Source: an uncultured Alphaproteobacteria bacterium (GTDB taxonomy: Bacteria > Pseudomonadota > Alphaproteobacteria > Rs-D84). From it: a stretch of DNA of 64,000 nucleotides. The number at the start of each line of letters is the position of its first letter. The first letter of the stretch is position 1. The stretch is from assembly GCA_905233975.1 (NCBI GenBank), contig CAJOGD010000002.1, positions 1,574 to 65,573 on the forward strand, given 5' to 3'. The notes under the pieces were generated by a model that had not been told where the DNA came from, searched no databases, and worked only from the letters and a program-made list of their open reading frames with translations. Below, piece by piece: positions 4,873 to 41,039 of the stretch. The position numbers and the translations under genes were made by a program.

Positions 4873-5991
4873 TTATTGTTGGTCTTGGGGAATATAGATA
4901 TTTGTGTTTGCCACCGGCCCGGCGGAGAAGTTCGTGTTCGGGGCCGAACTGGTAAAGAACCGCCGCGATACAGTATCATACATGCCGACCGCGTCGCCAT
5001 GTTGCGCCGGGATAAAATTACGAACCAGGGTATCGCCGTTATAAATACTTAATTCATATATTTTTACGCTATACGCATTTATAGTTAAATCGTTATTAGC
5101 GAATAAATACATGGTGGCATCACCACTAAAATCGTTATTGGTGGGAATATATACGGTGACGCCATCTATTATAAATGCGTTTTTATCTGCAGTAAACCTG
5201 TGTATATCTGTATTCACTGTAAGCGTGGGTTTGATAAAGGCCTGGCCGAAACCGAAAAAAGCTTCGGTCGAATAAGAAAATTGAAATCTGCCACTTCCTC
5301 TATTTGTTACGCCTATTATGTAACTCCTGTTGGCGGAAGTATCGATTATCGCAAATTTCCCTTTAACTTTTGTATTCTGATTTGGGGATATTTCCGTATC
5401 AATATACTGATGTCCGTCGGATTCAATCCATTCCAGTGGCGTATAATCATTTGGTAAAACGCCATTATCCGTTATTACATTATGTATCGAGTAAACCCAA
5501 CAAAGATTTGTGTTTGGGTCGGATTCCGAACAAATAAATTCACTATCAAGTCCCTTTCTAAGTGCGGCGTTAAATGTTTTCGCGTCAATCAGGTTATCCG
5601 ACTGGGCGGCATACGATTCGCTTGTTTGATAAATTCCTTTTTGTCCGATTGTTCCGGCCGTTCCGGTGTATGTGACCGCGGTATGATCGTTGACCGGGTC
5701 GATGTCGTCCTGTTTTTGATTTAACTTTGTGTTCACACCACCAACCATGGGGATCGATTCGGTTCCGCCATTATCCAAATCCGATGTGACGGCGCGTTTT
5801 TGCACCACGCCGGCCGCGTTTGTGTATTCCATGGCTTTATTCGTGTCCGCGTCGAATTTATTTTGTCGTGTTTCCAATTCGTGTGTGACGTATTTTAACG
5901 ATGTTGCGGTTTTGCGGTCCGTCGCTTCTTCGGCGAACGCCGGCAACGCCGCCGCCATCAACCCGAACACAAACAATTTTCCTAAATGCAT
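4873..5991 (-). CDS. secreted protein, paralog A (constant N-terminal half, variable C-terminal half)
   Basis: Signal peptide MHLGKLFVFGLMAAALPAFA and a strong AAGGAG RBS. Residues ~20-195 are nearly identical to 13314..14486. The C-terminal motif is LVRNFIPAQ..GMYDTVS..FF......F.AGP...NIYIPQ. Confidence 0.8.
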   Translation of the reverse strand: MHLGKLFVFGLMAAALPAFAEEATDRKTATSLKYVTHELETRQNKFDADTNKAMEYTNAAGVVQKRAVTSDLDNGGTESIPMVGGVNTKLNQKQDDIDPVNDHTAVTYTGTAGTIGQKGIYQTSESYAAQSDNLIDAKTFNAALRKGLDSEFICSESDPNTNLCWVYSIHNVITDNGVLPNDYTPLEWIESDGHQYIDTEISPNQNTKVKGKFAIIDTSANRSYIIGVTNRGSGRFQFSYSTEAFFGFGQAFIKPTLTVNTDIHRFTADKNAFIIDGVTVYIPTNNDFSGDATMYLFANNDLTINAYSVKIYELSIYNGDTLVRNFIPAQHGDAVGMYDTVSRRFFTSSAPNTNFSAGPVANTNIYIPQDQQ

Positions 5992-6015
5992 ATCGCTCTC
6001 CTTTTTTTCTTTCTT

Positions 6016-6112
6016 CTCGTCATACCGCCGAAAGGCGGTATCTCCTCAGGCTTTCCTGAGAACTGGCCCGCGACGGTTTCGACGGGATTCCGGCTTTCGC
6101 CGGAATGACGGA
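6016..6112 (-). repeat. two-hairpin REP-like module in the 5' leader of paralog A
   Basis: CGTCATTCCGGCGAAAGCCGGAATCCC plus GAGATACCGCCTTTCGGCGGTATGACGAG (minus-strand reading). It is near-identical to 14507..14592, and one hairpin recurs at 55372..55402. Confidence 0.7.
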
Positions 6113-6427
6113 GTTTTCGCGCAATCCCGCACTAACCCCAAATAAACGAAACCACCGAAACGCTTCTAGTGGTTGGAGGTTAACGACAATTCAAGCTGAG
6201 ATTGTGTGCTTATTCTGTGGGGTATGCCCCGCATTATTCACATCCCTCCAACCAATTCTGGTTGGAGTACTTTTCGCCTTTGAATCATAAGACGCAGCTT
6301 GAAAAAGGGTCGTTACACCCCATCGACGGAACACCCGCCGACAAGATTATTCTATCAGAAAATGAAAATAAAAAACAAGTGAAAAATAAACGCGCGGTGC
6401 ACCGATGTGTAAAAATACAAAAATATA

Positions 6428-9808: not shown

Positions 9809-9967
9809 AACCGCCCTATTCTGTGCCAAAAAATGCAAAAGTGGCGGATTTCTGCGCCTTTGTGGCGATTTTTGACGTAAAAATATGTTTTTTATTGATT
9901 CTTTGAAGTCGGGGGAGAATCCCCCCCCACTAACACTAACCGCCAACACTTACGCTTCTTTTTACGC

Positions 9968-9997
9968 TTGCGCATGTGGTGGGTGCGGTGGTATAAT
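9968..9997 (+). promoter_or_regulatory. candidate promoter for the Cys-rich protein gene
   Basis: TTGCGC, 18-nt spacer, TATAAT (9992..9997), 22 nt upstream of GTG 10020. Confidence 0.35.
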
Positions 9998-10019
9998 TTC
10001 GGCGAAAGGATTTGAAAGG

Positions 10020-11012
10020 GTGGGATTTTTAATCAGGTTTTTTGCCATAACTGTTGCGGTTTTGTTTGGGCGTGGTGCATATGCGCAATGTTGTTGGTGC
10101 GATACGGATCCTTGTCCGTTTGGGAAAGAATTTGGTGGCTATAATAACGGGGTGCCAAATTGTGATAACCCTTGTTATGGTTATGATTGCGACTATTGTG
10201 GCGATGAACCGGGGCAATATTGCGATAGTTTTCCGGACCCCTGCCCTGGATTGGCGTCTAATTATAAATGCAAGGTTAAAAGTGGAATGTGTGGTGCGTC
10301 GTCGGGTTGTACGGGGTACCAGTCATGTGATTCCCAGACGGGCATTTTGGGGCCGGACGTGGTTTCCGAAAATTGCCACCTTGAAAACAGTACGTGTTAT
10401 GTGAATACACGAAATTGCAAAGATTTTACAAATCATACGGAAAATAATAGTTTGAGTTGTCCCAAATCTTCTCAACAGGGACAGGCGCAATGGAAATCTG
10501 ATAGGAACGCTTGGGATACCAAGGGATGTTATTGTAATCTTTTGCACCTGGTTCTTGGAAATGAAATGTGGGGTATTCCGGTATGGTGTGATGATTTAAA
10601 TGCGGAATATATTGTGTCGGACGCAAATAGGTATGTGACGACCCGGGTTTCGGCTGATATTGTTTACACCATGGAACGATTGTTTTGTGCAAAATGTCAC
10701 CCAGGTTATTTACCAACAATCAGTCAGTCGCCCGGGACAAATGGAATTTATTCGCGTCCCGATAACAATGGCACCTGGGGTGTTGCCATGTGTTCGGACC
10801 AAGTGACCATGCCCTATTACGCTGATGGGTGTGTCATAGATTTTGGTTTGTCGTCGGGTTCGGCCGCGGTTTCGGCGTGTCAAATGTCTTGTCCGGGCGG
10901 AATGACCATAACCGAAGATGGCGCAACCGGCATATCGCAATGCGTGCCAACGGGCCAAACGTATGAAGACGCCACAGGAACGTTTGTTATCGGGTCGGAT
11001 TTATGCCATTAA
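10020..11012 (+). CDS. secreted cysteine-rich protein, unknown function
   Basis: The track ORF starts at 9885, but that N-terminus covers repeat and promoter sequence. GTG 10020 follows GAAAGG and gives the signal peptide VGFLIRFFAITVAVLFGRGAYA|Q. The mature part has about 35 Cys (QCCWCDTDPCP..). Confidence 0.6.
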   Translation: MGFLIRFFAITVAVLFGRGAYAQCCWCDTDPCPFGKEFGGYNNGVPNCDNPCYGYDCDYCGDEPGQYCDSFPDPCPGLASNYKCKVKSGMCGASSGCTGYQSCDSQTGILGPDVVSENCHLENSTCYVNTRNCKDFTNHTENNSLSCPKSSQQGQAQWKSDRNAWDTKGCYCNLLHLVLGNEMWGIPVWCDDLNAEYIVSDANRYVTTRVSADIVYTMERLFCAKCHPGYLPTISQSPGTNGIYSRPDNNGTWGVAMCSDQVTMPYYADGCVIDFGLSSGSAAVSACQMSCPGGMTITEDGATGISQCVPTGQTYEDATGTFVIGSDLCH

Positions 11013-13313: not shown

Positions 13314-14486
13314 TTATTGGTTCTGGGGAATATAAATATTGTCCGGAATGATTGGTCCGGCGATAAAGTCTGCGCCATTTCCTGCGTTTTCGAAAAAATT
13401 CCCCGATACTGTATCATACATGCCGATTGTGCCTTGGGCATTTTGGGCCGGTATGAAATTGCGAACAAGTATATCATTGGATTTTATATATGCGCCATAT
13501 ATTTTTGCCTTTGCGTATGTGTTAGGGCCACCGCCAATGCCAATGTTGGATTTGAATAAAGTAATTTGATTGGTTATGCTGGTAAAAACACCGTTAGTAA
13601 CATTCAGGTTGTATTCGACATTATCCATATAACATTTACGCAGGCCCGTATTCCACTTGATTTGGTGCCGGTCAAGGATACTGGCGACGGTTATTTTGGT
13701 TTCTGTAGCGCTAGCGCCGGCCTGTATACCAATCATTGTGGCTGATTTAACATCGGTTTTTAGCCAGAAGTTGGCGGCCTGGGCACCGAAAGCAGATGCG
13801 TAATTATAGTGTGCCGCATTGCCGTCAACGTATTGGACATCTATAAAAAATTCAGAATTTGTATTTAAATCGGCCGGATAGATGCCGGTATTAATATATT
13901 GTGTGCCATCGGATTGAAGATATCCCAACGGGGTATAATCGTCCGGCAAGAGGGTATTATCCGTTATTACATTATGAATCGAATAAACCCAACAAAGGTT
14001 TGTGTTTGGGTCGGATTCTGAACAGATAAATTCGCTATCAAGTCCCTTTTTAAGTGCCGCGTTAAATGTTTTTGCGTCAATCAGGTTATCGGATTGTGCG
14101 GCATACGATTCGGTTGTTTGATAAATTCCCTTTCGTCCGATACCGCCGGGTTGCCCAGTGTATGTGACCGCGGTGTGGTCGTTAACCGGGTCAATGTCAT
14201 CTTGCTTTCGATTTAATTTTGTATTCACACCACCAACCATGGGAAGTGATGTGTCGGACGTGCTGGTGCCCAAATCAGATTTGACCGCGCGTTTTTGCAC
14301 CGTTCCGGCCGCGTTTGTGTATTCCATGGCTTTGTTTTGTTCCGCGGTAAATTTATCCTGACGCGTGTCCAATTCGTGTGTGACGTATTTTAACGACGTT
14401 GCCGTCTTGCGGTCCGCCCCCTCTTCGGCCACCGCCGGCAACACCGCCGCAATTAGTCCGAACAACAAAAACTTTTTTAAAAACAT
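13314..14486 (-). CDS. secreted protein, paralog B (constant N-terminal half, variable C-terminal half)
   Basis: Signal peptide MFLKKFLLFGLIAAVLPAVA and a GGGGAG RBS. The 5' half (about 13960..14486) is about 90% identical by eye at nt level to 5470..5991. The 3' half is divergent except for the terminal LVRNFIPAQ..GMYDTVS motif. Confidence 0.8.
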   Translation of the reverse strand: MFLKKFLLFGLIAAVLPAVAEEGADRKTATSLKYVTHELDTRQDKFTAEQNKAMEYTNAAGTVQKRAVKSDLGTSTSDTSLPMVGGVNTKLNRKQDDIDPVNDHTAVTYTGQPGGIGRKGIYQTTESYAAQSDNLIDAKTFNAALKKGLDSEFICSESDPNTNLCWVYSIHNVITDNTLLPDDYTPLGYLQSDGTQYINTGIYPADLNTNSEFFIDVQYVDGNAAHYNYASAFGAQAANFWLKTDVKSATMIGIQAGASATETKITVASILDRHQIKWNTGLRKCYMDNVEYNLNVTNGVFTSITNQITLFKSNIGIGGGPNTYAKAKIYGAYIKSNDILVRNFIPAQNAQGTIGMYDTVSGNFFENAGNGADFIAGPIIPDNIYIPQNQ

Positions 14487-14506
14487 GTTTCTCCCCTTTT
14501 TCTTTT

Positions 14507-14592
14507 CTCGTCATACCGCCGAAAGGCGGTATCTCCCCGGGCTTTCATGAGAGTCAACTCTCGACGGGATTCCGGCTTTCGCCGGAATGACG
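14507..14592 (-). repeat. two-hairpin REP-like module in the 5' leader of paralog B
   Basis: Same two hairpins as 6016..6112, at the same distance from the RBS. Confidence 0.7.
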
Positions 14593-14876
14593 GCATTAAA
14601 AACTACCGCGGTGGAAATCACGCGGTCGGGGTGTTAGCAAATCAGGTTTTCAATAGATTCCACTGGGTTTTGGGGGTTAACCCTGTTCTATATCCCAATG
14701 GCACCCCGACTTTGTGTCAGGGGTTTGTCCATTCATGACGGTGCGAAACATGGAAACCACAAGAATCGTGAATAACAACACGTTCATAGATTACGATGCA
14801 ACGCACCGGAAAACCTTAGGCCTGCTACAGCCCCGAACCAGATTCCCATCTGATTCAACGCATATGTTATCAGAAA

Positions 14877-15407
14877 TTATAAAAGTCGGTCAAGTGAAAA
14901 AATTGCGCGCAATAAAAGCCGAATCTTTTCTTGGCGTTCTTGTTCAAGTTCGTCAAGGCGTTCAAACGCTTTTCGCCGGGCGTTTAATATTTGTTCTTCC
15001 GCATATTTGCGATTTTGTTCGTCGCCGTTTTCTTCGTAAATATAATATAGTTTTGTCCACCATCGGTCTTCCAGGTCGTATTTGAATATAAGCGTGTCCT
15101 GTTTGGCACCGACCGGCAGCCAAGGGATTTTGTAATACTTTGGATCGAAAACGTATTTGATGTTGTTGTCGCTATGGCAAATAATTCGCATTTGGTGCCG
15201 GTTGTCGTATATTGTGTCTATGCCATAGACCGGAACGGTAAGGTGGTTGTTTATGACAAGTTCTGTTTTGTTGTTTATAAACTTGCAATTTTGTGGGGTT
15301 GCCAAATACGTCGCGCTGTCTGCCTGGGCGGTCGCCCGCGACATTGTGATATACATTGCACAGATTGTTAAAATGGTTTTGGGACGCAGTGTCATGTTGG
15401 ATTTCAT
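14877..15407 (-). CDS. small secreted protein, tandem paralog 1
   Basis: Signal peptide ending ..SRATAQA. It shares CKFI..KT.(L/V)V(I/V)N......VYGIDTIY......(L/I).C.......(Y/L)VFDP.YY with 15473..15955. Confidence 0.65.
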   Translation of the reverse strand: MKSNMTLRPKTILTICAMYITMSRATAQADSATYLATPQNCKFINNKTELVINNHLTVPVYGIDTIYDNRHQMRIICHSDNNIKYVFDPKYYKIPWLPVGAKQDTLIFKYDLEDRWWTKLYYIYEENGDEQNRKYAEEQILNARRKAFERLDELEQERQEKIRLLLRAIFSLDRLL

Positions 15408-39901: not shown

Positions 39902-40384
39902 TTATATCAAAAACGCAATCGTAATCAAAGACAAAATTCCACCGATTATGAAAAAAGGTGCAAAAGGAATAAATCTCTGTTTTTTTCTGTACGCCCATGT
40001 CGCACCAAATATGCAGGCCAGCACCAGCGCAATCGCCAAACCCGTCGGCCCACACCAAAGTCCGCCCACACTGATCAGTTTTATGTCGCCCATGCCGATT
40101 GGGCTTTCGGCCCTTGGGTTTCGTTTGGTCAAGATTTTATCGAAAATCAAACCGATGATTGTTGATAACAAATATCCAAACGTCATGCCGACCACGCCCG
40201 ATTCGATGTTCGTTGGCCATGGAAAAAATGTCGTGATGATAAGTCCGATGATAAGGACCGGAACCAGGTATGCATCCGGAATAATGCGCCGCCGCATGTC
40301 GGCCCTTGCGATTTTATAGCAAAGCCCCAGTGCCATAAGAATTAATACAGAAAAAAAAGACCAAAATATGTATAAAAACATCAT
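39902..40384 (-). CDS. A24-family prepilin peptidase (CpaA-like, short form)
   Basis: 160 aa, 5 TM helices, both catalytic Asp contexts (RRIIPD and GMGDIKL). Confidence 0.75.
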   Translation of the reverse strand: MMFLYIFWSFFSVLILMALGLCYKIARADMRRRIIPDAYLVPVLIIGLIITTFFPWPTNIESGVVGMTFGYLLSTIIGLIFDKILTKRNPRAESPIGMGDIKLISVGGLWCGPTGLAIALVLACIFGATWAYRKKQRFIPFAPFFIIGGILSLITIAFLI

Positions 40385-40457: not shown

Positions 40458-41039
40458 ATGAGTAAATCGTGGGATAACAGTATATTAAAAAAGCTAAAAA
40501 CCTTGGTGGGCAAGGGTTTGTCCACGTCGGAAATTGGTAAAAGGTTGGGTCTTTCGAAAAATGCCGTTGTGGGTAAGTTGCACAGACTTGGATGGAACGC
40601 CAAGGCGTCTGACGCCGAAGTTGTAAAACCCAAGGTGGCGGACAAGAAACCGGTCGCGGCGAAAAAGACGGCACCCCGGGCGGCCGCAAAGGTTGAAAAA
40701 AAGGCGGCGCACGTGAAAAAGTCCGGTGATGCGGCGGTAAAGAAATCGGCGGTGGCAAAACCGGCCAAGGAAACAAAATCGGCGGAAAAACCAAAAGAAC
40801 CCGCGCCGAAAAAGACCGGCGGGCATGCGATTGCCGGTAAAGGGGTCGCGGTGCATCAACGTATGGTTCAACATGCGTTGGAAATGGCAAACCTTAAACC
40901 GAATCAGTGCCGTTGGCCAATTGGGGATCCGGATTCCGAAGGGTTTCATTTTTGTGGGCATCCGGTATTTGTTGGCAAACCGTATTGTTATGAGCACTGT
41001 AAACAGGCATATCAATTTGCGCCACCAAAGAAAAAATAG
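40458..41039 (+). CDS. gcrA: GcrA cell-cycle regulator
   Basis: N-terminus W....I..LK.L...GLS.SEIG..LG.SKNAV(V/I)GK.HRLG, a Lys/Ala-rich linker, and the C-terminus C.WPIGDP....F.FCG......KPYC..HC..AYQ. Confidence 0.9.
   Translation: MSKSWDNSILKKLKTLVGKGLSTSEIGKRLGLSKNAVVGKLHRLGWNAKASDAEVVKPKVADKKPVAAKKTAPRAAAKVEKKAAHVKKSGDAAVKKSAVAKPAKETKSAEKPKEPAPKKTGGHAIAGKGVAVHQRMVQHALEMANLKPNQCRWPIGDPDSEGFHFCGHPVFVGKPYCYEHCKQAYQFAPPKKK

Follow-up and report, generated by a model that had tools for sequence, protein, structure and literature searches.

Exported proteins with a constant frame and interchangeable lectin-like domains in a 1-Mb alphaproteobacterial genome: a probable recombination-diversified recognition repertoire

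Two genes, here called A and B, lie in a 64,000-nucleotide stretch of DNA (the window) from an uncultured cattle-gut alphaproteobacterium of the order Rs-D84 (assembly GCA_905233975.1, contig CAJOGD010000002.1, positions 1,574 to 65,573). Both belong to a family of 56 or more monocistronic genes, dispersed in the genome, each of which encodes a signal peptide, an N-terminal module of ~150 amino acids (the N-module), one of several inserted domains and a constant C-terminal tail. The family is probably a recombination-diversified repertoire of lectin-like exported recognition proteins, in which an interchangeable domain is carried on a constant frame. These proteins would be exported to the cell surface, where they would bind glycans or a partner, and the repertoire, under diversifying selection, would allow a host or partner to be adhered to or recognised. 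The parts of the two genes, in positions of the window, are as follows.

4873..5991, minus strand: gene A, 372 amino acids, a family member with a LamG-like (type A) insert.
5932..5991, minus strand: signal peptide of gene A, residues 1-20, with a hydrophobic core and AxA; putative cleavage between AFA and EE, placed by eye.
5479..5931, minus strand: constant N-module of gene A, residues 21-171, made up of helix/beta-hairpin repeats of which the last is a Cys-loop hairpin, C..C-WVYSIHN.
4915..5478, minus strand: predicted LamG/ConA-like beta-sandwich domain of gene A, residues 172-359, from the AlphaFold2 model, Foldseek and the strain comparison.
5041-5394, minus strand: hypervariable core of the LamG-like domain of gene A, residues 200-317.
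4873..4914, minus strand: conserved C-terminal tail of gene A, ...NIYIPQDQQ, with the stop codon; a family-exclusive tail motif.
5992..6357, minus strand: 5' leader of gene A, ~350 nt, starting at the extended -10 box TGATAGAAT (6349-6357).
5992-6150, minus strand: proximal leader of gene A, ~150 nt, with three hairpins; common to gene B and replaced between strains.
13314..14486, minus strand: gene B, 390 amino acids, a family member with a LamG-like (type A) insert.
14427..14486, minus strand: signal peptide of gene B, residues 1-20; putative cleavage between AVA and EE, placed by eye.
13971..14426, minus strand: constant N-module of gene B, residues 21-172; a paralogue-like version is present in the second strain.
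13353..13970, minus strand: predicted LamG/ConA-like beta-sandwich domain of gene B, residues 173-378, from the model and Foldseek.
13314..13352, minus strand: conserved C-terminal tail of gene B, ...NIYIPQNQ, with the stop codon; the tail motif.
14487..14893, minus strand: promoter of gene B, TTGACC-18-TGnTAACAT, and 5' leader of ~370 nt; the -10 box ends at 14864.

Compared end to end, the two proteins are 55% identical (BLASTP, E 4e-133). Identity is 64% in the signal peptide, 85% in the N-module (residues 23-172) and 67% in the first strands of the LamG-like domain (173-199), falls to 22% in the core of that domain (200-317), where ~118 residues are unrelated, and returns to 64% in the last strands (318-345) and 44% in the tail. 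In a codon alignment the sliding nucleotide identity is 85-93% up to about codon 170, 60-67% over codons 175-195, ~20-40% over codons 200-305 and 55-73% from codon 310, a profile that drops in two steps at codons 170-200 and is step-like rather than gradual. A further ~110 nt 5' of both start codons are conserved between the genes. This pattern is far beyond chance and recurs in 48 intact paralogues. The original prediction, made from the sequence of the window, had placed the two reading frames correctly, to which the minus strand can now be added for both, and the sharp junction and the common terminal motif LVRNFIPAQ..GMYDTVS..FF..AGP..IYIPQxQ that it described are present in both genes. 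Its measures were less accurate. The first ~195 residues, described as near-identical, are indeed a shared region with an identity of 80% over residues 1-195, the DNA of 5470..5991 and 13960..14486 is 82.5% identical and not about 90%, and the unrelated stretch, which is real, spans ~118 residues instead of ~170.

A search for the family was made over the whole genome, a 1.04-Mb assembly of 11 contigs (numbered here with the prefix C) that is 94.8% complete. It gave 48 intact members, which confirms the expectation of further paralogues, together with three frameshifted copies and fragments at contig ends; in all, the family is counted as 48 intact copies and 8 fragments. The tail (V/I/L)Y(I/V)PQxQ is C-terminal in 56 open reading frames, all 56 of them family members, and occurs neither internally nor elsewhere in the genome. 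Intact coding sequences make up 5.5% of the assembly and encode proteins of 313-572 amino acids. In all 48 copies the signal peptide is followed directly by the conserved N-module (up to ..C-WVYSIHN, at about residue 172), and the copies then differ in what is inserted before the tail: 19 single-domain copies, both window genes among them, carry insert type A, 12 carry type B and 6-8 type C, nine are tandem forms with another domain ahead of type A, and a singleton has a different domain. The genes are dispersed singly, 10-40 kb apart, and no conserved neighbour (chaperone, immunity gene or secretion partner) was found around them; in the window, the neighbours of A and B encode a DUF308 protein, HisRS, RF1 and trigger factor. 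Silent C-terminal cassettes, which had been suggested as possible further members, do not exist in this genome. All 48 copies have a start codon, a signal peptide and a leader, and the partial family matches are pseudogenes, contig ends or domains inside other proteins. Many contigs start or end inside family genes (C1:3-1127, C2:1-720, C3:61851-62600, C7:1-339, C9:21278-22021, C11:4295-4975 and C2:80679-81326), so the assembly breaks at the family and the true copy number is probably higher than 56. The sequence occurs in sequencing runs of bovine and gut metagenomes.

The strongest evidence for cassette replacement at sharp boundaries is the comparison between strains. The second strain is represented by a syntenic contig from another sample (L041), on which HisRS is 99.1%, RF1 100%, trigger factor 99.5% and the DUF308 protein 100% identical to the protein of the window, with a proportion of synonymous differences (pS) of 0.02-0.09 in these flanking genes. 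Between these flanks gene A is 64% identical overall and its core (window 5043-5400) is unrelated; in the leader the distal part is 92-100% identical and the proximal part (6001-6150) is replaced, and identity in the N-module is 78-96%. The junction peptide VITDNGVLPNDYTPLEWIES is the same in both strains and convergence resumes at VGMYDTVSRRFFT and the tail. In gene B the LamG-like domain is 97% identical at the nucleotide level (pS 0.048; proportion of nonsynonymous differences, pN, 0.026), the whole leader is replaced and the N-module shows a pS of 0.57, against the background of 0.02-0.09. This N-module is nearer to tandem-class paralogues of the window's genome than to its positional counterpart. 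Across 10 metagenome contigs the gene-A locus holds at least three unrelated LamG alleles beside an identical DUF308 protein, and alleles 2 and 3 are absent elsewhere in this genome. Allele 1, compared in two samples, has a ratio of nonsynonymous to synonymous substitution rates (dN/dS) of 0.16 in the LamG-like domain and a pS four times that of the flanks. It follows that the alleles are functional and conserved and that they predate the strains in which they occur. A comparison of alleles across metagenomes had been proposed with the original prediction, and its outcome, replacement between strains at sharp boundaries with three or more alleles of gene A, agrees with the exchange that was predicted.

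Recombination is also recorded among the paralogues of the one genome. The alignment of N-modules is a combinatorial mosaic of alternative blocks (DLDNGGTE or DLGTSTSDTS; DIDPV, DIAAV or DIAPI; five versions of the Cys-loop). Among 522 aligned sites 239 are informative, and 75-88% of site pairs, a count inflated by saturated synonymous sites, are incompatible, the proportion rising with distance. The pairwise homoplasy index (PHI) statistic is 1.403, compared with 1.458 +/- 0.014 in permutations, none of 1000 of which was as low. The most similar pair of N-modules (90.6% identity) belongs to one type B gene and one type A gene. For the mature N-module the median dN is 0.125, dS ~1.0 and dN/dS 0.12, from which it follows that the copies are old and that the frame is held by purifying selection and not by recent homogenisation.

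The variable domain was examined in AlphaFold2 models of both proteins, built from 71-sequence alignments. The C-terminal domain is a confident all-beta sandwich in A (predicted local distance difference test, pLDDT, ~85-98) and in B (75-97), with the same order of strands. Foldseek comparison of both models with the PDB returned LamG, neurexin, agrin, SHBG, galectin, GH16 and other ConA-like jelly-rolls; 1pz7, 1f5f, 3b3q, 1qu0 and 7zc9 were matched by both proteins, with target-normalised template modelling (TM) scores of 0.47-0.54 and E ~1e-4. The lists also hold large multi-domain proteins that contain such jelly-rolls, and the likeness is one of fold only. In both proteins the predicted domain is thus a jelly-roll beta-sandwich superposable on LG/LNS domains. 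The common strand order and the common fold matches make the two 'halves' one domain type. The models therefore do not bear out the view that the C-terminal halves of A and B are swapped and unrelated; they are divergent versions of a single predicted LamG-like domain, with conserved edge strands and a hypervariable core. The original prediction would have been weakened by a common fold that also had a conserved binding surface. The predicted fold is common to both proteins; a conserved surface was not found, and the whole core varies. Hypervariation confined to loops was considered for the core and rejected, since variability is equal in strands and loops (top-residue frequencies 0.30 and 0.27). 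True swaps of domain type are present in other members of the family, namely types B, C and the tandem forms.

For the whole proteins no family was found in Pfam-A at E <= 1 or in NCBIfam at E <= 0.1, no match in a sequence search of the PDB at E <= 10 and none in PHROGs, and a locus search of genome contigs with gene B gave no relative. The domain itself is very widespread. A HMMER search of 1.84 billion cluster representatives found 10,950 proteins at E <= 0.001, most of which match residues 176-360 only, and in many of them, which are 600-5000 amino acids long, the domain is repeated in tandem 3-10 times; one of these proteins also bears Listeria-Bacteroides repeats. The hallmark motifs of type A, LEYIESTGTQYIDTG at the start and LVRNFIPA..G.GMYD.V...FFTN.GTG.F.AGP at the end, differ from those of catalogued families. 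Type A is a candidate for a new domain family; it is very abundant in public genomes and metagenomes, and giant surface proteins often have it in tandem repeats. A further copy lies at C2:67184-67780, just past the end of the window, inside a 4702-amino-acid open reading frame for a giant surface protein that starts at the window end. At C1:68706-69749 there is a second sub-type, in which a shorter N-module is joined to a type-A LamG-like domain ending ...GPVAQ, without the YIPQNQ tail; this gene is adjoined by an N-module-only gene and resembles protein P0033 of an NCBI metagenome-assembled genome.

The same domain families occur in the tail-gene regions of viruses. Structure comparison with BFVD gave much stronger matches than the PDB (E down to 1e-16, one match with a TM score of 0.77 and a root-mean-square deviation of 2.6), all to uncharacterised gut-phage proteins, and in IMG/VR 302 stretches encode the domain. 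In both of the two viral contigs inspected its gene comes after those for the tape-measure and minor-tail proteins and before that for the endolysin, and types B and C match these viral loci at 30-43% identity. With PHROGs profiles type A is undetected and type C is found weakly, as a tail fibre; tblastn of two type-A domains against GenBank phages gave no match, and the link appears only in the IMG/VR and BFVD viromes. The loose association with phage receptor-binding proteins or tail-fibre tips that had been drawn from the C-terminal motif thus holds for the domain family. Viral identities are no higher than those between paralogues, which argues for a shared pool of domains rather than recent transfer. 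Genes A and B do not themselves lie in a tail morphogenesis module, their neighbours being those named above.

The N-module is far more restricted. Its profile gave spurious or weak matches only against PDB sequences and PHROGs, and it is absent at E <= 1e-5 from 40 sampled relatives. By profile it was detected in 16 of 151 genomes of the order. Five further species of the genus have it in expanded sets of 21-31 or more copies; in one of these species a member is built in the same way, around a type C insert and with ...FIPQNVQ as its tail. In the window's genome, three to four secreted proteins consist of nothing but an N-module (C8:54018-54677, C4:168941-169591, C4:227512-228228 and C1:69740-70174), and there is another in a related species (L056:1258-1989). 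The N-module-only proteins, which have a distant version of the module, stop a few residues past the Cys-loop hairpin with a tail-like strand ...CLIYEVHTNMASGTYVPHN, and that of the related species ends ...CLLWNVNNLSGTYMPENQ. In some of the stand-alone proteins the tail-like strand (GTYVPHN, GTYMPENQ) comes four residues after the Cys-loop hairpin. The position that is a four-residue turn in these proteins is that at which the variable domain sits in the family, which suggests that each variable domain is inserted in the turn of a hairpin. In LamG-type domains the two termini lie next to each other. The tail may pair with the hairpin of the N-module; the Trp variant of the hairpin is associated with the YVPQ variant of the tail (Fisher p = 4e-4, uncorrected for relatedness). 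We read the N-module and tail together as a display or anchoring frame.

A distant relative of this frame is diversified by a different route. The only reverse transcriptase of the genome, a 352-amino-acid open reading frame at C4:962-2020, has an IGNLTSQ motif of the diversity-generating retroelement (DGR) type and a YCDDF motif. A template repeat of 132 bp lies near it at C4:239-370 and its variable repeat is at C8:52853-52984, the 3' end of gene C8:52838-53992; the two differ at 14 positions, and at all 14 the template has adenine. The target protein is a tail-less relative of the frame, with a signal peptide, a distant N-module (32% identity) and a Cys-rich, C-type-lectin-like end. In a search of the reverse transcriptase region (C4:1-6000) for repeats the single one found pointed to C8:52853-52984, and none to gene A or B. 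Action of the DGR on A and B was accordingly rejected, as the template has no match there and the alleles differ over whole cores, not at adenine-templated sites. The original prediction had found no support for a DGR; this stands for genes A and B, and has to be amended in that an apparently complete DGR exists elsewhere in the genome and acts on a distant relative. That the same kind of frame is used for DGR variation supports the view that it is a display platform for binding domains, and the N-module is an orphan frame on which diversification proceeds both by recombination and by a DGR.

Both genes have an extended -10 promoter ~350-370 nt upstream of the start codon. Across the family the leaders fall into conserved classes, and they too are mosaic. 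A proximal module of three hairpins is common to A and B (window 5992-6150 and 14487-14600, minus strand); one of these hairpins is ATTCCGGC-GAAA-GCCGGAAT. The final hairpin ahead of the ribosome-binding site is always paired, with two compensatory pairs, and after the last hairpin come a conserved AUGACGAG, an A-rich tract and GGAG. An AUG in the leader could be the start of a short upstream open reading frame overlapping the start codon. This leader ending is found in about half of the family; the rest have a U-rich, terminator-like hairpin followed by (T)AGTG repeats.

Several known systems invite comparison. The predicted fold of the variable domain matches the LamG/ConA-like superfamily (laminin G, neurexin LNS, agrin, SHBG, galectins), which is well known as a scaffold for binding ligands and glycans, although the subfamily found here has no Pfam (e.g. 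Laminin_G_3) or NCBIfam model. In logic the family is closest to the mosaic adhesive trimer (MAT) fibres of Bdellovibrio bacteriovorus, yet in structure it is not a MAT. MAT fibres are trimeric beta-helices of ~1000 amino acids, present in 21 copies and often bearing an S74 chaperone-protease domain (Caulton et al., 2024, PMC10769870). Both families are multigenic and Sec-exported, with a conserved domain directly after the signal peptide, and in both the C-terminal binding domains have been exchanged in evolution and resemble phage proteins. The proteins described here are shorter (313-572 amino acids) and in the AlphaFold2 models consist of short helices and hairpins followed by one beta-sandwich, with no beta-helix shaft. 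They have no S74 match in Pfam, a conserved tail follows the variable domain, and there are at least 56 copies in 1 Mb, compared with 21 in Bdellovibrio. No sequence similarity to the solved MAT fragments was found (PDB sequences, E <= 10).

The Hop/BabA-BabB proteins of Helicobacter pylori and the Opa proteins of Neisseria are outer-membrane beta-barrels with variable exposed regions, often subject to repeat-based phase variation. Here as there, dispersed complete paralogues exchange segments by homologous recombination, which results in mosaic genes and strain-specific repertoires. The present family differs in that its frame is a soluble N-module and a tail, in that whole domains of different folds are exchanged and in that a repeat-based phase switch was not seen. 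With the DGR-diversified C-type lectins Mtd of Bordetella phage and TvpA of Treponema it shares massive variation of a binding domain on a constant frame, but A and B have neither template repeat nor adenine pattern, their domain has another fold and its variation arises by recombination. The arrangement of pilE/pilS and vlsE, in which one expression site is fed by arrays of promoterless partial copies, was not found, nor was that of polymorphic toxins (CDI, Rhs), since the variable domain is of predicted lectin fold and there is no conserved downstream or neighbouring gene.

The mechanism that we favour can be put as follows. The product would be exported by the Sec pathway and would run from the signal peptide to an N-module ending in a disulfide-loop beta-hairpin, then to the variable domain and the tail (V/I)Y(I/V)PQNQ. 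The variable domain, a predicted LamG/ConA-like jelly-roll in A and B, would be inserted between the last hairpin strand of the frame and the tail. Homologous recombination, and not point mutation or a retroelement, would generate the diversity, with crossovers at places of conserved sequence, namely the leader, the N-module, the tail and the first and last strands of the LamG-like domain. The outcome would be short-patch mosaics of the N-module within the family and, between strains, wholesale swaps of the LamG core or of the N-module and leader. Of the ligand-binding family with exchangeable domains in the original prediction there remain a large exported family, a predicted fold of lectin type and sharp replacement; the unrelated halves do not. 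A wider proposal, possible but distinctly tentative, is that the N-module and six-residue tail form a split display scaffold of a sub-clade of gut Alphaproteobacteria with tiny genomes. Binding domains of several folds (LamG-like, B and C), drawn from the pool that also supplies phage tail-tip domains, would be carried in the last hairpin turn and exchanged at the population level, and the repertoire of at least 56 genes would be the means by which a bacterium obligately dependent on a partner recognises that partner or a host.

A number of observations weigh against an exported recognition repertoire diversified by recombination. Gene B was found in no RNA-seq run, and a route for export across the outer membrane was not identified. 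For the N-module, the PDB, Pfam, NCBIfam and PHROGs offer no recognisable relative, and it was modelled with low to moderate confidence (pLDDT 45-77), and the tail is unstructured in both monomer models, which give no support to its pairing with the hairpin. Recombination among paralogues was read from mosaics and not caught in the act, and the saturation noted above bears on those counts. Neither were long recent conversion tracts found: the longest exact run between paralogues is 97 nt, which suggests that the exchanges are short or old. When donors for the segments replaced in the second strain were sought in this genome, the best were 85% identical for the N-module and 36-40% for the LamG-like domain, and no high-identity donor was found for any of them. 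Finally, two further samples of the same strain show no difference in gene B, from which it appears that variation proceeds on the timescale of strains, with no sign of rapid switching.

Some of these points would fit secreted or periplasmic proteins that bind carbohydrates or act on them in the manner of GH16, with which an auxotroph scavenges nutrients, and which would be neither adhesins nor recognition proteins. ConA-like folds include glucanases and the lectin domains of sialidases, the genome is reduced and its habitat rich in glycans, and the lack of an identified route across the outer membrane agrees with such a role. We nevertheless think it unlikely, as there is no glycoside-hydrolase match in Pfam or NCBIfam, and unrelated cores at a single locus speak for diversifying or balancing selection, of the kind usually seen at interaction surfaces and not in housekeeping uptake; the same domain is found in a phage tail-gene region, and the same frame bears a DGR-diversified lectin. 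Domain types in common with viral tail-region genes might be taken to mean that these are receptor-binding proteins of a phage, prophage or tailocin, parts of a particle and not of the cell. This is very improbable given that each of the copies comes with a Sec signal peptide and with a promoter and leader of its own, that the copies are scattered singly among housekeeping genes with no phage structural genes adjacent, that the N-module has no PHROG match and that 56 copies in 1 Mb would be implausible for prophage remnants.

Ordinary duplication and gradual divergence, in which the C-terminal domain simply changes faster and no cassettes are exchanged, would account for the age of the paralogues (dS ~1) and for the absence of long identical tracts between them. 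It is already largely refuted, and we give it very little weight. It does not explain the step-like identity profile, non-homologous domain types on one frame or segments replaced, at ten times the background pS, between strains whose neighbouring proteins are 99-100% identical; the PHI test and the patch mosaic indicate recombination, and similarity of the N-module does not track the type of C-terminal domain, as the closest pair shows. Programmed hypervariation, by a DGR or by an expression site of the pilE/pilS type fed by silent cassettes, is the least probable of these alternatives. The genome does carry a DGR, but its variable repeat is in a different gene and its template has no repeat in A or B. 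The alleles differ over whole cores, all copies are full-length, arrays of promoterless cassettes are absent, and the identity of gene B in independent samples of the same strain is at odds with it.

Two further features of the window may be mentioned. A prepilin (type IV leader) peptidase gene (39902-40384, minus strand) is divergent from gcrA (40458-41039, plus strand), which encodes GcrA. The peptidase hints at a Tad, type IV pilus or type II secretion-like apparatus, with possible relevance to the export of surface proteins. Between the genes for RF1 and trigger factor a 375-amino-acid open reading frame without a Pfam hit (9885-11012, plus strand) is 83% identical to its counterpart in the second strain (332 amino acids), compared with 99-100% for its neighbours, and is therefore another fast-changing gene.

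Lineages of the order Rs-D84, whose published description this organism fits, lack most biosynthesis (PMC12306168). A genome of 1 Mb that spends at least 5.5% of its DNA on one variable, lectin-like exported family, and in which that family is turned over between strains whose housekeeping proteins are nearly identical, most likely has in this family its interface with whatever the lineage depends on. The family would then be a handle for finding the ligand on a partner or host. Beyond this lineage, the analysis exposes a very abundant and uncatalogued LamG-like domain family, of ~11,000 cluster representatives, in gut bacteria, in giant surface proteins and in genes of phage tail regions.

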